A DNA stretch of 42,039 nt from a virus (Duplodnaviria; Heunggongvirae; Uroviricota; Caudoviricetes). A program made the position numbers and the translations under genes. Positions 25,411 to 32,280 of this stretch are shown piece after piece. Each line of letters opens with the position of its first letter. Position 1 is the stretch's first letter. Location of the stretch: IMG/VR virus record IMGVR_UViG_2740892429_000003. The stretch is one strand, 5' to 3'. The notes beneath the pieces are model-generated. The model worked only from the letters and a program-made list of their open reading frames with translations. It was not told the DNA's origin and did not search any database.

Positions 25411-25593
25411 CCTGTACCAGCCTGTACCCACCTGTACCAGCTCTTTTCAAACCTTTTCCCCAAGCGACTTATATATATATATGGGGTTCTTAGTAATTAG
25501 GTTGGTACAGTTGGTACAGTTGGTACTGACCTTTAAATTCAATTAGTTAAAATGTACCAACCTCTATTTTGAAGCTGGTACAGGTTGGGACAC
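25411..25593. repeat. Iteron cluster / putative replication origin
   Basis: CCTGTACC x3 direct at 25411, 25421, 25431; (AT)6 at 25471..25482; inverted TTGGTACAG x3 at 25502..25528 plus degenerate and further copies to 25593. Confidence 0.65.
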
Positions 25594-27756
25594 CGCCTCA
25601 AAAATTCGAGTCATTTTTCCGTCAACACGACGTTGAACGCGCTTATACCCGCAATTTTGCAAAACATTACTAATTCGCATTTCTTCGCGTTTTCCGATGC
25701 GGTCAGGATTTAGCCCAATCGCATCACGCAAAACATCACTTGCGCGTAAAAATTCGCAATTTCGCGGAAGTTCATTAGTCATCAGGTCGGGCGTGTCGAG
25801 CCATTTCTCTACCGTTTCAAGCCAAGCATCCTTGATGGTGTACTGTTCATGGACACTCGCTGCCAGTTGTTCAGCCTCACGGAACTGGATACCCCCCAGA
25901 CGCTGAAACACCTCACGAGCCTCAGCCCAAAGTAAAAGGAGATCTCTTTTTATCGCTTTCACGTCGACTTTCGACACTTCCACGGGGAGCCAGCGACGGT
26001 TACCAGTCTTGTCCGCAAGGAATTCGTCCTCATTGGTGGTACCAACGAACACCAGGCGACGAGGAAACTGGGTGGCAAACTCCCGGTATTTCGGGATCCA
26101 GTTTTCGTGAGTACGCGTCACAAACGCTTTGATTGACTCCAGCTCTTTGGTATTAAGTCCGCGCAGTTCACCAATCTCTGCCACCAGCCGACCACGCATT
26201 TTTCGAGCGAGATCATCGTCTTTTTCGGCAAAAGAGATTTCAGTAAAAAACGCAGGATCAGGGCTCAGTGCCTCCACTCCGGAAGACTTACCGCAGCCCT
26301 GCGGACCAACGAGGATAGGCACCATATCCGCTTTGATGCCTGGCTCCAGTACTCGCCCCGCCAACGCGGTCCACATGTACATAGACACCGCACGGGTATA
26401 AGGCGTGTCGGCGGTACCGAAGTGCGTATGGTAGAAACATTCGATGCGCGGCACGCCATCCCACTCCAGTCCGTTCAGCCAGGTGATCGCTGAATCGAAT
26501 GGTTGTTCATCGGCTGCAAGTAACACCACATCGCGAATAAGTTCACGACCAACAGGTTTAAATCCCCGCTTTTCCATCGTGATGCGCAGGCGCGAATAAT
26601 CCGCATCGGTGAATGCCCGCCATTGTCCGGATCCTGCAGGGGCAAACATGATTTCGTCACGGAACTGGTCAAAGCGAATATCGATGTCCACAAAATCAGG
26701 GCGTACTACTGCTTTGGCTGCGTTGCTGATGGTTGCCTCGATACGCCCCCATTTATCACGCTCGAAAGCCGGCAGCGGTAAAGGTTCCGCCACTTCGGTG
26801 CAGGTCAGATCTTCGAAATCGTCGTTGCGGATCCCGATGGCATTAAGGAAATCTCCGTCATCACGATGCGCACAACTGGCATGCAGGCATTTAAAATGCC
26901 CCTGCTCAAAACCCGCGGTCCCCGCAGGAAAATAAACTGTGCTTGTCGGATCGCCCCCGCTACTGTGGCCGTCTTCAAACGGGCAGCGGATATATCGTTC
27001 ACCGTTTGCACCATCCAGCAGCGTCCAGCCATTGGCATCAAGATATTCAGCTGTATCATCCGTCGCGCCGGGCGTGAATGCTGAACGGTCGCGCATCTTC
27101 GTGTTGCCCGCTTCGGTGGTTACCGACACAGGGAGTTGTTCAGCCAGGCGCTGCCACAGCGTTTCAAGCTGCTCACCTGTAATAGCCGGAGGTTCATCCG
27201 GCAAACCACCGTCCCATTTAATACGCGCGCCGCTGCTGTGCGTACCACAGGCAACGAACTGCTGCCCGTTCGCCAGCAACTCGATAATGCCCATATCCCC
27301 CGCCAAGCGATGGATACGCTTACGGAAATCACCATCAACGGCCAGCAGATACAGACACTTATTACTGTTTGCTCGCCAGCGTCGCGGCGGCAACTCACCC
27401 AGAAGTTGCACAAGTGTTTTGCGAATATCTGCCTGAATGTCTTCATCTTCGCTATCGCAGTCCAGCGCCAGCCAGCCATGGCCTGTACGCACGCAGATGC
27501 CATAATCCGGTTCATTCGACCAGCGGGCAAAATCATGCTCAGTAACAACATGCCCGGTCCATTGAGCAATACCGGTGACCTGGCGGTCCCGGTTATAGCG
27601 ACTCGGCGTCTTACCCAGCGCTTTCAGTTTACTATCAGGGGATATGGTCGCACCGGGGTTACATACAACTGGCAGAAGATGATCAGTTCTCCCCAATACC
27701 AGGTCGAAATGAAACCACTCATCAGGCGTAGCTCCCCATGGTTTGCTATCGGACAT
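25564..27756 (-). CDS. Primase-helicase (PrimPol-like N-terminus, zinc motif, P4/VirE-type P-loop NTPase C-terminus)
   Basis: 730 aa; Walker A GPQGCGKSS; Cys/His cluster CPFEDGHSSGG...HFKCLHASCAH; ATG verified at 27754..27756. Confidence 0.8.
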   Translation of the reverse strand: MSDSKPWGATPDEWFHFDLVLGRTDHLLPVVCNPGATISPDSKLKALGKTPSRYNRDRQVTGIAQWTGHVVTEHDFARWSNEPDYGICVRTGHGWLALDCDSEDEDIQADIRKTLVQLLGELPPRRWRANSNKCLYLLAVDGDFRKRIHRLAGDMGIIELLANGQQFVACGTHSSGARIKWDGGLPDEPPAITGEQLETLWQRLAEQLPVSVTTEAGNTKMRDRSAFTPGATDDTAEYLDANGWTLLDGANGERYIRCPFEDGHSSGGDPTSTVYFPAGTAGFEQGHFKCLHASCAHRDDGDFLNAIGIRNDDFEDLTCTEVAEPLPLPAFERDKWGRIEATISNAAKAVVRPDFVDIDIRFDQFRDEIMFAPAGSGQWRAFTDADYSRLRITMEKRGFKPVGRELIRDVVLLAADEQPFDSAITWLNGLEWDGVPRIECFYHTHFGTADTPYTRAVSMYMWTALAGRVLEPGIKADMVPILVGPQGCGKSSGVEALSPDPAFFTEISFAEKDDDLARKMRGRLVAEIGELRGLNTKELESIKAFVTRTHENWIPKYREFATQFPRRLVFVGTTNEDEFLADKTGNRRWLPVEVSKVDVKAIKRDLLLLWAEAREVFQRLGGIQFREAEQLAASVHEQYTIKDAWLETVEKWLDTPDLMTNELPRNCEFLRASDVLRDAIGLNPDRIGKREEMRISNVLQNCGYKRVQRRVDGKMTRIFEAVSQPVPASK

Positions 27757-27759
27757 GGG

Positions 27760-27972
27760 TTAAGCCTTTTTATCGTTTTGTGAGCCATACAACAGCCAAT
27801 TAGGGTCGCAATCCAATGCGATAGACATTTCAAGAAGATAACGTGGCCGAGCAATAACACCACTTTCAATTCTGTTTATTGCCTGCTGGCTCACTCCTGT
27901 GAGCTCAGCCAACGTAACTTGCGTCATTTTGAGTTCTTTACGTCGTTCTTTTACTCGGGTCGCTAAGGTCAT
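27760..27972 (-). CDS. Cro-like HTH (XRE family) regulator
   Basis: 70 aa from ATG with GAGGTG SD (longest ORF begins at TTG 27990); HTH QVTLAELTGVSQQAINRIESG; divergent from CI-like gene. Confidence 0.7.
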   Translation of the reverse strand: MTLATRVKERRKELKMTQVTLAELTGVSQQAINRIESGVIARPRYLLEMSIALDCDPNWLLYGSQNDKKA

Positions 27973-28092
27973 TGCTTTCACCTCATACAATTTTAGTGGT
28001 ATTTAGCAACAACAAATGAGGTTTGTCAAATACAACAAAAATTGTTTTTAATGTGGGTATACACATTAATACAACCCAGAAGGACTAATCCC
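27973..28092. promoter_or_regulatory. Divergent promoter/operator region of the immunity switch
   Basis: AT-rich 120-bp spacer between divergently transcribed Cro-like and CI-like genes; individual operators not resolved. Confidence 0.5.
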
Positions 28093-28716
28093 ATGTCTCT
28101 CGCAGCCCGTTTTAAAGCACGTCGTTTGGAATTAGGAATGACTCAAGTGGAAGTAGCGAATTCTGCAGGGGTTAGCCAACAATCCATAGAATCCATCGAA
28201 AGTGGACGAACCAGAAAGCCACGCAATCTTCTGGATTTGGCTAAGGCCTTGAAATGTAGCCCAGACTGGCTACTGAACGGTAAAAATATTATGCCTCTCA
28301 CAGAGATAAGTACCAGACGCATACCTATATTAAGTTACGTTCAGGCAGGAGAGCTTACAGAAGCAAGAGACATAACAGATCTGACAGGGGAATTTGAATA
28401 TATTTTGGCAGACTCTGACATTCCAGAAACATGCTTCGCATTACGTATTGATGGCGACAGCATGCAACCAGAGTTTAAAGAAGGAGACATTGTTATCATC
28501 GATCCTGATCTATGTCCTGCACCAGGGGAGTTTGTTGTCGCCAAAAACGACGGTCACGAAGCTACATTTAAAAAATACCGTCCATTAGGAATCGGCATCG
28601 ACGACTTTGAATTAATCCCCCTAAATCCTGATTACCCTATTTTTCGTAGTGCAGATATGAACTTACAGATCATAGGTGTAATGATCGAACACCGTATTTA
28701 CCGCCGTAAACGTTAG
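28093..28716 (+). CDS. CI-like repressor (HTH + S24 LexA-type autopeptidase)
   Basis: 207 aa from ATG with AAGGA SD; HTH QVEVANSAGVSQQSIESIESG; Ala-Gly cleavage site (VQAGEL); catalytic Ser in GDSMQP and Lys in VVAK. Confidence 0.85.
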   Translation: MSLAARFKARRLELGMTQVEVANSAGVSQQSIESIESGRTRKPRNLLDLAKALKCSPDWLLNGKNIMPLTEISTRRIPILSYVQAGELTEARDITDLTGEFEYILADSDIPETCFALRIDGDSMQPEFKEGDIVIIDPDLCPAPGEFVVAKNDGHEATFKKYRPLGIGIDDFELIPLNPDYPIFRSADMNLQIIGVMIEHRIYRRKR

Positions 28717-29041
28717 TATTCCCACCGTAAATATCGGGAGGCGTAACAGCCTCCCTTACCCCATTTGTAAAGTCTTACAAATTAAATTCACTTAAATATC
28801 AATAAAGTAGTATTCACACCCCACAAAATACCACATTTGTGGTTTACACGATACAACTCAAATTGTATCTTTAACCACAAGTCGAACGGCGCGACTCTAA
28901 ACCATGCGTCGGGACCGTGGCGGGACAGGATGTCGGCAATACAGGTCAGTAAGTTCCCTTTGGGGTGCGGCGAAGCACTGTCTAATTAATACAAGTCGAA
29001 GCCGCCGAACCACCAAAGTGAACTGAATGAGGAATCACAAG

Positions 29042-29236
29042 ATGCCTAAATATAAACTGGTTAATGACCTGGCTATCGGCGACAAAATTGAATTCAGTGG
29101 AAAACGGATAATGGAGATTACCCAAAAAACTGATCGCGACCAGCATAACGTTAACCTGACTCTAGTTAACAAACATACAGGTTCTGCGACCAATACTTGT
29201 TTTAACCGAATGGATACCGTCGTCCTTCACCCATAA
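29042..29236 (+). CDS. Small hypothetical protein downstream of repressor (lysogeny-locus cargo position)
   Basis: 64 aa (MPKYKLVNDLAIGDK...), GAGGA SD; followed by terminator; occupies the rexAB-like position relative to cI. Confidence 0.45.
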   Translation: MPKYKLVNDLAIGDKIEFSGKRIMEITQKTDRDQHNVNLTLVNKHTGSATNTCFNRMDTVVLHP

Positions 29237-29278
29237 CAATCCTCTGAATCCTCCATGTAATTGCTGTGTGTAGCCTTT

Positions 29279-29305
29279 GCCCGCCTCAAGTGACGGGCTT
29301 TTTTA
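29279..29305 (+). terminator. Rho-independent terminator
   Basis: GCCCG-cctcaagtga-CGGGC followed by TTTTTTA. Confidence 0.7.
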
Positions 29306-29363
29306 TGTCTGAAAGCGCACTCGCAACAGCGCGCTCCCCGATATGAAAAAAGGAATACAACCG

Positions 29364-29513
29364 ATGAAACCTGAACACATCCATCGACTGACGGGGCGCG
29401 ATGTTCTCCGTTATCGCCGTAAAAACTTCGATTTGATGACCGGTCTGGCCGTTGCCACTGCGCTCGGTCTGATCATCACTTTCATTCTCCTTGTAGCGAG
29501 GACCACAGTATGA
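29364..29513 (+). CDS. Small tail-anchored membrane protein
   Basis: 49 aa ([49 protein letters not shown]); AAGGA SD; stop overlaps start of next gene (ATGA); below ORF-track size cutoff. Confidence 0.4.
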   Translation: MKPEHIHRLTGRDVLRYRRKNFDLMTGLAVATALGLIITFILLVARTTV

Positions 29514-30414: not shown

Positions 30415-31716
30415 ATGCCAGACGTTCACGCACAACTTTCTCCATCATCAGCGCATCGATGGATGCGCTGCCCAGGAAGTCTGGCGCTGGAGGCCACACA
30501 ACCGGATAAAGAAACAACTTTTGCAATCGAGGGCACTGCAGCGCACGCGCTTGCTGAAAAAGTTCTACGAAACAGGCAAAGCCACCCGGAACACTACGCC
30601 GGATGCAATGTTTCTATGTTTCTCGGCTCATACCCCCTTCGCGAAAATCCTGATGATAAATCTGGCCCACAGGTGGATGATGAAATGGTCGAAGCCGTCG
30701 GCCGGTATGTTGATACGGTCTGGACTCTTGCAAAGAATAATGAACTATTGGTTGAACAACGTGTTGATTTCTCACATATAACGGGTGTGGAAGAATCTTT
30801 CGGAACTGCCGACGGCATAATCATCGCTGGTAACGAATTACAAATCCACGACCTGAAATATGGCAAAGGCGTCCGCATTGATGCAGAACAAAATGAGCAA
30901 CTACAACTGTATGCTCTGGGTGCGCTTGAACAATTCAGCATGCTGTATGACTTTGAAACTGTAAGATTATTTATTCACCAACCAAGGCTCAACCACGTTT
31001 CAGAATGGTCGTTAACCGTACAGGAACTTCAGTCTTTCGGTGAACGGGCGCTGGAGGCCGCAACCAGTGCGATCCTTGTTCTCAATATTGCTGAATGCGA
31101 AGGCATTGAGACACTACCGCTGGAAAACTTCATACCTGGAGAAAAACAGTGCCGCTTCTGTAAAGCAAAAGCTATTTGCACTGCCCAGAAAATGCAGCAT
31201 TTACAAACAGCGGCCAGCGATTTTGAAGATCTGACAAAGCCTGTCAGCGAAATAATCACCAATGCCAGCGCACGTGTACCTCTGTTAACCATTGAGCAGC
31301 TTGCAGAGATCTATAGCCAGGCCGACTTTATTGAATCCTGGCTAAAGGCAGTACGGGACCGGGTTCACAATGAACTCAATGCCGGACATCCGGTACCGGG
31401 GTTTAAACTGGTAACAGGAAAACAAGGTAACCGGGCCTGGAGTGACGAAGAGGCAGCTCGCGCACTTCTGAAGGACCAGTTCAGGTACAAAACTGAAGAA
31501 GTATTCGACTTTAAACTTATTAGTCCCACAAAAGCCGAAAAACTTATCAAAAAGGCCAGTCCGCGCCGTTGGTCAAAAGTCGAGGCACTGATAACACGAG
31601 CTGATGGTAAACCCACCGTCGTTCCCGAGTCAGACCCACGCCCCGCACTCAATATCAACCCTGTAAATGATTTCGACGACGTATCCGACGATACGCTAAC
31701 CGCAGACCTCATCTGA
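30415..31716 (+). CDS. PD-(D/E)xK nuclease, Cas4/RecB-like with Fe-S cysteine cluster (DUF2800-type)
   Basis: 433 aa; N-terminal [15 protein letters not shown]; C-terminal C-x2-C-x5-C ([10 protein letters not shown]) completing a 4-Cys set. Confidence 0.7.
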
Positions 31717-31731
31717 TTTAAGGAAATCCCC

Positions 31732-32280
31732 ATGAAACTGAAGCTGAACAATGTTCGTCTGGCCTTCCCGTCTCTGTTTGAAGCTAAAACTGTAAACGGC
31801 GAAGGCGATCCGCGTTTCTCCGCAGTATTTTTAATGTCTCCCAAACACCCACAACTGGAAGAAATCCGTAAAGCTATGAAGCAGGTAGCGAAGGAAAAAT
31901 GGGGGGAGAAGTGGGAGTCCATTTATAACCAGCTGGAGAAAAAACTCAATCTGTGCCTGCATGATGGTGATGAAAAAGCAGAGTATGAAGGCTTTCCCGG
32001 CAATTTCTTCCTGAACGCTGCTAACAAAGCGCGCCCAGCTGTTCTTGATCGCGATCGTTCGCCACTAATTCAGGCTGATGGACGTCCCTATGCAGGGTGC
32101 TATGTAAACGCCATTATCGATATCTGGGCACAGGACAATAATTTCGGTAAACGCATTAATGCCTCACTCGGCGGAGTCCAGTTCCTGCGAGACGGCGATG
32201 CATTCGCTGGCGGCGGAGTGGCAAGCGCTGACGATTTCGACGATATCAGCGAAGGTGCTGATGCTGAAGCACTGATTTAA
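31732..32280 (+). CDS. Phage ssDNA-binding protein-like (DUF2815-type) with acidic C-terminal tail
   Basis: 182 aa; C-terminus ADDFDDISEGADAEALI; conserved partner of the preceding nuclease and the polymerase. Confidence 0.6.
   Translation: MKLKLNNVRLAFPSLFEAKTVNGEGDPRFSAVFLMSPKHPQLEEIRKAMKQVAKEKWGEKWESIYNQLEKKLNLCLHDGDEKAEYEGFPGNFFLNAANKARPAVLDRDRSPLIQADGRPYAGCYVNAIIDIWAQDNNFGKRINASLGGVQFLRDGDAFAGGGVASADDFDDISEGADAEALI

Follow-up and report, generated by a model that had tools for sequence, protein, structure and literature searches.

Is the DNA behind a prophage repressor gene a cargo locus that is expressed together with the repressor in lysogens, or the start of an operon that the repressor keeps silent? 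The question is raised by positions 28,717 to 29,363 of the IMG/VR virus record IMGVR_UViG_2740892429_000003, a stretch of 42,039 nucleotides (nt) that is called the window in the following. The window matches E. coli strain 21KM1392 at 100% and is an E. coli prophage. An earlier note on this DNA, made from its letters, assigned the block to the position of lambda rexAB, co-transcribed with the repressor gene cI. We consider a different arrangement likely, namely that the block is the repressor-controlled start of an early operon of the HK022 pL-putL-nun-tL type. It would comprise a put antiterminator RNA, a cargo gene whose product resembles domain I of elongation factor P (EF-P), and a terminator that resembles the 3' domain of the host small RNA (sRNA) RprA.

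A put-type RNA at the predicted start of the transcript

The put RNAs are among the very few RNAs known to reprogram RNA polymerase unaided. The block contains one candidate:

28878..28949, plus strand: put-type cis-acting antiterminator RNA of about 70 nt, an H-type pseudoknot (stem I) and a bulged stem II, found by blastn, pairing count, and covariance model

In blastn searches against phage records, positions 28880-28951 are about 82% identical over 72-79 nt to putL of HK022, HK75, and O276, and they also match the put-like RNA of HK639. The fold of put is known from cryo-electron microscopy (cryo-EM). The segments A3-G7/C15-U19 and 10-14/30-34 form an H-type pseudoknot with a loop that makes a triplex, and a bulged stem II follows (PMC9378689). 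The pairing scheme of that study was counted on 11 put-like sequences from phage records and IMG/VR. Under this scheme, 94.6% of cells are paired, compared with 83.5% in shuffled sequences, and eight pairs covary. None of 500 shuffles equals this result, and controls with a slid scheme are 24-49% paired. In the window, all pairs of the cryo-EM fold (20/20) are canonical. Compensatory changes from HK022 to the window turn A5-U17 into U-A, G38-C70 into C-G, C41-G66 into U-A, and the apical GUUC/GAAC into GAC/GUC.

The residues found critical by mutagenesis are A9, U28, G35, G43-G47, and A64, together with an unpaired bulge in the lower part of stem II (Hwang 2022, PMC9378689). In the alignment, the put of the window retains A9, U28, G35, G43-G47, and A64. 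Antitermination in HK022 needs the unpaired bulge U68 (PMC9378689); the base at the stem II bulge is A in the window (position 28945) and G in close relatives. The -10-like UAAACCAU segment that is typical of putL is also kept. A put covariance model gives 95 bits and a single hit in the window, a score to which the put of the window contributed as one of the 11 seed sequences. At the level of motifs, put lies downstream of a promoter-like site with operators and upstream of the terminator at 29279-29304. Conservation of put reaches 97-100% among many E. coli prophages whose immunity modules differ. By sequence and pairing, the RNA at 28878-28949 is a new member of the known put family, and by analogy with HK022 it would direct antitermination.

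The 10-mer ACAAGTCGAA occurs at the 5' end of put (28877-28886) and again in the distal leader hairpin, across its upper 3' arm and loop (28991-29000). The earlier note had seen both copies and had placed the first at 28868, nine bases off. One repeat of a 10-mer in 600 bp is close to chance (about 0.2 expected). The second copy runs on as AAGTCGAAGCCGCCGAAC (28991-29008), which is similar to the put 5' end AAGTCGAACGGCGCGAC. This copy may have been left by a partial duplication of put and now forms part of the leader hairpin.

Repressor gene, operators, and promoter

The elements between the divergent regulatory genes and put are as follows.

27985-28002 and 28030-28047, no strand assigned: two operator-like sites between cro and cI (pattern ATACMANNNNNNTKGTAT), which define the motif found again in the block
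28093..28716, plus strand: CI-like repressor gene with HTH_3 and Peptidase_S24 domains (Pfam and PHROG matches; LexA family regulator in RefSeq)
28736..28755, plus strand: GC-rich hairpin GGGAGGC-GTAACA-GCCTCCC (RNAfold -16.1 kcal/mol), about 20 nt past the cI stop, with a weak U tract
28821..28842, no strand assigned: inverted repeat CCACAAA-n8-TTTGTGG (arms 28821-28827 and 28836-28842), overlapping OL2
28828..28845, no strand assigned: operator-like site OL2 (ATACCACATTTGTGGTTT), overlapping the -35 hexamer
28843..28871, plus strand: sigma-70-like promoter TTTACA-17-TATCTT, the pL equivalent (promoter scan; predicted start about 28877-28879)
28851..28868, no strand assigned: perfectly palindromic operator-like site OL1 (ATACAA-N6-TTGTAT), in overlap with the spacer and the -10

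The cI gene stops with TAG at 28714-28716, and its transcript probably ends at the hairpin 28736-28755. Canonical terminators are found at the equivalent point, between the repressor gene and the promoter, in relatives with other repressors and in HK022 and O276. The earlier note had described 310 bp behind cI without a credible open reading frame (ORF). Such a gap exists and is 325 bp long, up to the next credible start, an ATG at 29042. The ORFs inside it encode at most 50 amino acids (aa) each, and all overlap structured RNA.

The 18-bp palindrome ATACMA-N6-TKGTAT has four sites in 42 kb at no more than one mismatch, against 0.38 expected, and 0 of 100 shuffles reach four; this count is partly circular, as the sites counted are those that gave the motif. 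The inverted repeat lies exactly where the earlier note had it. A 7-nt arm pair alone is near chance in 600 bp (an estimated 0.8 expected), and the repeat matters because it overlaps one of the four operator-like sites. The promoter is the sole promoter-like match in the region. Its geometry is that of the annotated HK022 pL, with 7 nt from the end of the -10 to +1 and with +1 two nt before A3 of put. In strain C10, another immunity module is fused to identical downstream sequence from 28867, exactly at the -10, which fits what a module boundary would give. From these motifs, we infer that the CI-like repressor would bind both operators and shut the promoter in a lysogen.

The earlier note had also suggested that the gap holds early-operon operators, a small RNA, or both. 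It does hold operator-like sites (at 28828 and 28851) and a structured RNA. This RNA, put, is cis-acting and not a trans-acting small RNA; the sole candidate for the latter lies at the terminator, at the other end of the block.

A small gene for an EF-P domain-I-like protein

The first ORF behind put has the following position.

29042..29236, plus strand: 64-aa gene for a stand-alone EF-P/IF5A domain-I-like (KOW-like) beta-barrel, with the Shine-Dalgarno sequence GAGGA at 29031-29035, six bases upstream

Comparison of sequences indicates that this ORF, which the earlier note had picked out, is a real gene. Relatives from Klebsiella, Salmonella, and metagenomes, several of which have different repressors, carry homologues with 67-97% identity at this position. 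The ratio of nonsynonymous to synonymous divergence (dN/dS) is 0.08-0.23, with dS of about 0.5-2.3 and near saturation against the window, and points to purifying selection. RefSeq leaves the ORF unannotated, and it has no matches in Pfam, PHROG, NCBIfam, or PADLOC. Even at E up to 0.1, PADLOC gives no hit for this ORF, for its replacement in CB9615, or for the next ORF.

The likeness to EF-P is a structural one. In a Foldseek search against the PDB, the 50 best hits are all EF-P or IF5A (50/50), and by its fold the product is a confident look-alike of EF-P domain I. The beta3-beta4 loop, K29-T-D-R32-D-Q-H35, has the canonical seven residues with an arginine at the tip. It aligns with KGGR32SSA of P. 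aeruginosa EF-P in a search of PDB sequences and with KPGK34GQA of E. coli EF-P by hhalign. R32 is invariant across the small-protein family and falls on R32 of P. aeruginosa EF-P and on K34 of E. coli EF-P. R32 of EF-P is the arginine that is rhamnosylated by EarP (PMC11611912). The family is narrow, and an exhaustive profile search of 1.84 billion representatives adds just two full-length relatives. Four other hits of the profile are long repetitive proteins with 5 to 15 short matching stretches each, which were set aside as probably spurious. Our best guess, based on the fold alone, is that the small protein may interfere with the EF-P pathway or with the ribosomal E/P-site region. Nothing relevant on phage EF-P-like proteins was found in the literature searched.

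The slot of the gene is variable. CB9615-type prophages have a 64-aa CxxC...CxxC ORF there, phage 606R2 has two reversed genes, and some IMG/VR relatives have no ORF. By this comparison, the small gene sits in an exchangeable cargo slot. Neither a promoter scan nor reading of the sequence reveals an internal promoter before the ORF.

In the prophage of E. coli O55:H7 CB9615 (locus L009, 3340-3534), the slot is filled by an unrelated, unannotated 64-aa ORF with two CxxC pairs that is zinc-ribbon-like. Family searches give no significant match for it, and put and the RprA-like terminator on either side are kept in this common variant.

An RprA-like terminator

The block ends in a terminator whose surroundings resemble RprA.

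29210..29308, plus strand: match to the Rfam RprA model (RF00034; 49.3 bits, E = 4.4e-5 in a permissive scan; gathering score 70)
29259..29278, plus strand: single-stranded RprA core AAUUGCUGUGUGUAGCCUUU, which together with GCCC at 29279-29282 agrees with E. coli RprA nt 59-82 in 23/24 bases
29279..29304, plus strand: intrinsic terminator (tL1 equivalent), the first of the early operon, with GCCCG 29279-29283 pairing with CGGGC 29294-29298 and T6 at 29299-29304

The strong terminator of the earlier note is borne out by its GC stem and T6. A simple pattern scanner missed it, probably because the loop is long (10 nt counting only the five G-C pairs); the Rfam model aligns it to the RprA terminator. 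The 5' hairpin of RprA is largely deleted in this alignment, and a scan of the whole window at the Rfam gathering threshold gives no match. As in the processed form of RprA, a single-stranded AAUUGCUGUGUGUAGUCUUU is joined to the terminator. AAUCCUCUGA lies upstream of the core at the same spacing as AAUCCCCUGA in RprA. RNase E cleavage gives processed RprA, the last 47 nt of the sRNA, which has activity in vivo (PMC9262595; PMC6202311). The segment of RprA that the core matches, nt 59-82, lies at the start of this form. The conserved segment of the phage starts at AUU, about where RNase E yields processed RprA.

The core and the terminator are invariant in relatives that were found via the protein and not via the motif, though dS of the adjacent ORF is saturated. 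The RprA model gives 43-62 bits in eight other phage loci, and the exact 22-mer occurs in at least 120 IMG/VR contigs. In the fetched phage loci, 132 instances of the core with full flanks represent 27 upstream contexts from at least four unrelated phage types, lytic phages included. The core leads into a hairpin and a U run in every context representative (27/27). The hairpin sequences differ and their stems covary, and the bases upstream of the core are unconserved. A fixed single-stranded flank next to freely varying stems speaks for a sequence-specific function beyond termination.

Two other origins were considered and rejected. Capture of host rprA in prophage predictions does not explain the instances, of which 0/132 have genuine rprA upstream sequence. 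The lone ATCCCCTGA match, in locus L172, is not host rprA and belongs to a locus of the window's family. An origin from an attachment (att) site was also rejected, as the element is internal to the virion genome of vB_EcoM-606R2, between early genes and not by an integrase.

These comparisons suggest that 29259-29304 may be a phage mimic of the RprA 3' domain. A wider reading, which we hold tentatively and at clearly less than an even chance, is that this is a phage copy of the processed RprA 3' domain. It would be freed by termination or by RNase E at AUU, bind Hfq, and take over or titrate the targets of the RprA 3' seed. It would then belong to a widespread, undescribed class of host-sRNA mimics, paired here with an EF-P domain-I look-alike as a possible second hijack directed at translation. 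Pairing of such a phage RNA to host mRNAs may go through UGCUGUGUGUAG. No phage copies of the RprA core are described in the literature searched.

In unrelated phages, the RprA core ATTGCTGTGTGTAGTCTTTGCC with a variable terminator is seen in the fetched loci L139 (601-644), L140 (1501-1545), L141 (601-625), and L143-L258. L139 is from Erwinia phage Ea9-2. The core follows thymidylate synthase in N4-like Erwinia phages, and it lies 420 nt past the repressor gene in the lambdoid phage LLS (L140). The jumbo Erwinia phage pEa_SNUABM_1 (L141) also carries it. Some cores are preceded by a hairpin that resembles a tRNA T-arm (GGTTCGATTCCGG, L230) or by a GGCAGGTGGAGGCACCACCGCC hairpin. In five representative loci of unrelated phages, the RprA model gives 44-62 bits, below its threshold.

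One more structured element lies behind the terminator:

29314..29335, plus strand: conserved hairpin AGCGC...GCGCU with CCCC behind it, located past the terminator and before the next ORF

The hairpin does not vary among relatives from E. coli, Klebsiella, and Salmonella; a 27-nt insertion in its loop is seen in one relative.

The leader hairpin and an RNA that replaces put

Between put and the Shine-Dalgarno sequence lies a further RNA structure:

28952..29024, plus strand: long imperfect leader hairpin (RNAfold -31.4 kcal/mol), which holds the second ACAAGTCGAA

This hairpin may resemble the RNase III-sensitive hairpin between nutL and N of lambda. In relatives, its place is taken by an unrelated hairpin, AGTGAATTAATCAAAGGC...GCCTTTTACTAATTCACT.

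Some close relatives have no put. Exactly at the put position, loci L014 (Salmonella; 2771-2945), L011 (2772-2946), and L002 (1599-1773) and 28 further fetched loci have another RNA, which is multi-branched, highly conserved, and about 160 nt long. It has 47 predicted pairs, four of them with a compensatory change, and no Rfam match. A diverged put was considered as its origin and rejected, as the put covariance model gives no hit on it. Both put and the alternative RNA are found combined with either of the two types of leader hairpin, which implies exchange of cassettes. The alternative RNA is a candidate, by position and predicted fold, for a second kind of cis-acting antiterminator RNA.

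Proposed mechanism and alternative explanations

In the mechanism that we propose, the cI transcript would end at the hairpin just past the gene. In a lysogen, the CI-like repressor on the two operators would keep the sigma-70 promoter off. Upon induction or infection, the promoter would fire, and the first 70 nt or so would fold into put, in which a bulged second stem follows a triplex-containing pseudoknot. As in HK022, put would be expected to bind the beta' zinc-binding domain of its own polymerase, conferring resistance to pausing and termination. The polymerase would then transcribe the leader hairpin and the 64-aa EF-P domain-I-like gene. When modified by put, it would pass the terminator into the genes for a 49-aa ORF, a DUF2800 nuclease, an Enc34-type single-stranded DNA-binding protein (SSB), and polymerase/replication functions, while unmodified polymerase would stop at 29304. 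The terminated product, or a 3' end cut by RNase E, may be an Hfq-type RNA that resembles processed RprA. This release of an sRNA is the least certain step.

Several observations weigh against this mechanism or parts of it. The hairpin behind cI has a poor U tract, so that some read-through from the maintenance promoter PRM is possible. The promoter and operators are matches to a consensus and to a motif, and the operator count carries the circularity mentioned above. There is a single put without putR, unlike in HK022: the covariance model, run with filters off on both strands of the window, finds no second put (a putR analogue behind cro), and its next best score is 13 bits. Sequence support for the EF-P likeness is weak, although it agrees in direction with the fold. 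In a search of PDB sequences with the family profile, the best match is domain I of P. aeruginosa EF-P at E = 0.22. With hhalign, the alignment to E. coli EF-P has E = 0.022 and a probability of 2%, and Pfam and NCBIfam give no hit to EFP_N or an equivalent. The RprA match stays below the gathering score (49.3 against 70 bits). The predicted duplex with the rpoS leader has -11.5 kcal/mol, no better than shuffles, compared with -23.1 for RprA. A search for a phage self-target of the RprA-like seed gives only a trivial antisense site. Scans and reading of the sequence find no promoter dedicated to a small RNA or placed before the RprA-like core. Finally, the yield of terminated sRNA may be low because put-modified polymerase should mostly read through.

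Four other explanations have to be set against this. The one suggested by the earlier note, a rexAB-like lysogenic cargo locus that is co-transcribed with cI from the maintenance promoter and has the small ORF as a prophage defence gene, now appears improbable. Part of it stands, since the slot does vary between relatives, as that of a moron would. The post-cI hairpin without a strong U tract also speaks for it, as does HK022 nun at the same position, an exclusion gene that lysogens express and for which a separate promoter is annotated. However, the hairpin terminator, the two operators, the promoter, and put all lie between cI and the ORF, which places the ORF within the repressed early operon and removes the basis for the rexAB position and for co-transcription. 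Relatives have canonical terminators behind their repressor genes, no promoter-like site is found from put to the ORF, and the defence function finds no counterpart in PADLOC, Pfam, PHROG, or NCBIfam. Moreover, a transcript running on from cI would include put, and the entire early operon would thereby be de-repressed. Hardly any weight is given to the explanation that the put-like sequence is an inactive relic and that the early operon is expressed without antitermination. The single put and the close relatives without it would fit a relic, whereas all pairs and the tested critical residues are intact, with compensatory changes, and the conservation of 97-100% spans many prophages with different immunity modules. 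In addition, relatives without put have another conserved structured RNA exactly there, and a strong terminator follows put.

The RprA-like sequence may merely be an efficient terminator and Hfq-binding cassette that spreads by phage recombination and is not a base-pairing regulator, which in our judgement comes near to an even chance without reaching it. In keeping with such a cassette, the core always ends in a hairpin and a U run and sits where the operon needs its first terminator. It also scores below the Rfam gathering threshold, has no RprA 5' hairpin, and has no predicted rpoS pairing or phage target. But termination by itself would not require a single-stranded sequence to stay fixed, and the 19-nt unpaired flank is identical in 27 contexts from at least four unrelated phage types while the stems vary freely. 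The start of conservation at AUU, near the RNase E site of the processed, active RprA, also argues against a mere cassette. For the small protein, the main alternative is a KOW/Tudor-like factor in the N/Nun position that binds RNA polymerase, acts on transcription, and modulates elongation or excludes other phages; we regard this as unlikely, though less so than the rexAB-like locus. A repressor-controlled, put-headed early operon remains the explanation that we prefer for the block as a whole.

Genomic setting and distribution

The block is shared in part by about 150 of 5426 complete E. coli genomes and in full by seven. A cro-like gene is divergent from the CI-like repressor gene and is followed by a VapE-type primase-helicase. 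The late genes of the window are all on the minus strand, the same strand as cro. In the RefSeq records inspected, put, the small ORF, and the RprA-like terminator are all unannotated.

The Cro-like gene of the window (27760-27990) starts with TTG at 27990 in the ORF list and with ATG at 27972, behind an AGGTGA Shine-Dalgarno sequence, in RefSeq (PGAP). With the shorter form (ATG 27972), the operator at 27985-28002 falls outside the gene. Modules for replication and recombination that are non-lambdoid occupy 25564-27756 and 30415-32280. The latter encodes a DUF2800 PD-(D/E)XK nuclease and an Enc34/gp2.5-type SSB and lies inside the put-controlled operon. In relatives, an Nmad5 nucleotide-modification gene is found just downstream. 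The first gene past the terminator, at 29364-29513, is the 49-aa ORF (PHROG 11981, function unassigned), which has a hydrophobic C-terminal segment. A conserved 300-aa protein (PHROG 6784) is encoded next, with a start that overlaps the stop of this ORF.

Novelty and significance

To our knowledge, and by the literature searched, it is new that a phage family whose other modules are non-lambdoid combines put with an EF-P-domain-like gene and an RprA-like terminator. Two of the sequence observations, the spread of the RprA core among phages and the alternative RNA that replaces put, point outside known families. In this E. coli prophage family, which does not belong to the classic lambdoid phages, the early operon starts with an intact put, and the first terminator that this RNA must override carries an RprA 3' domain. 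The presence of either put or the alternative RNA at the same spot amounts to a natural swap experiment. If functional, the RprA motif would mean that phages widely copy a host regulatory RNA. The EF-P domain-I look-alike would be a new way to touch the polyproline-translation system of the host, and no such phage protein appears in the literature searched.

Comparison with known systems

The closest known system is pL-putL-nun-tL of HK022, which is also seen in HK75, O276, and HK639. The annotated O276 record has the order cI, pL -35/-10, putL, nun promoter, nun, terminators, and recombination genes. The same order is found here, with cI, a terminator, operators and promoter, put, a small gene other than N, terminators, and recombination genes. 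The put of the window shares with HK022 putL the pseudoknot and bulged-stem fold, the critical residues, and the UAAACCAU segment, whereas its stem II hairpin is one pair shorter. The two systems also differ in that the gene after put is not Nun and that the first terminator is RprA-like. The other modules of the window phage are non-lambdoid (VapE-type primase-helicase, DUF2800 nuclease, Enc34-type SSB, and late genes on the cro strand).

The core with its first stem bases shares 23/24 bases with RprA (nt 59-82), and the terminator that follows has the same shape. Unlike RprA, the phage element has no 5' stem-loop, promoter of its own, or predicted rpoS pairing, and it forms the 3' end of a phage mRNA. 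A regulatory RNA of similar origin is StxS, which arises by early termination of the Stx-phage late transcript (PR'/tR', with Q antitermination) and activates rpoS (PMC7547250). In both cases, a terminator that is overridden by antitermination would also yield a regulatory RNA from terminated transcripts after trimming by RNase E. StxS has another sequence and belongs to the late operon, whereas the element of the window lies in the early operon behind put and is known from sequence.

Full-length EF-P has the OB domains II and III in addition to domain I, whereas the 64-aa phage protein lies entirely within domain I and is without them. The EF-P loop KPGKGQA corresponds to KTDRDQH in the phage protein, which is acidic around the arginine. 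Compared with EF-P, EfpL, and IF5A, this domain-I look-alike is phage-encoded and narrowly distributed.

The rexAB genes of lambda lie between cI and oL/pL and are read from PRM in lysogens. The block shares with them a small ORF downstream of cI on the same strand and variation of the locus between phages. In contrast to rexAB, the small ORF comes 170 nt after the promoter and operators and behind put, where lambda has N and HK022 has nun.

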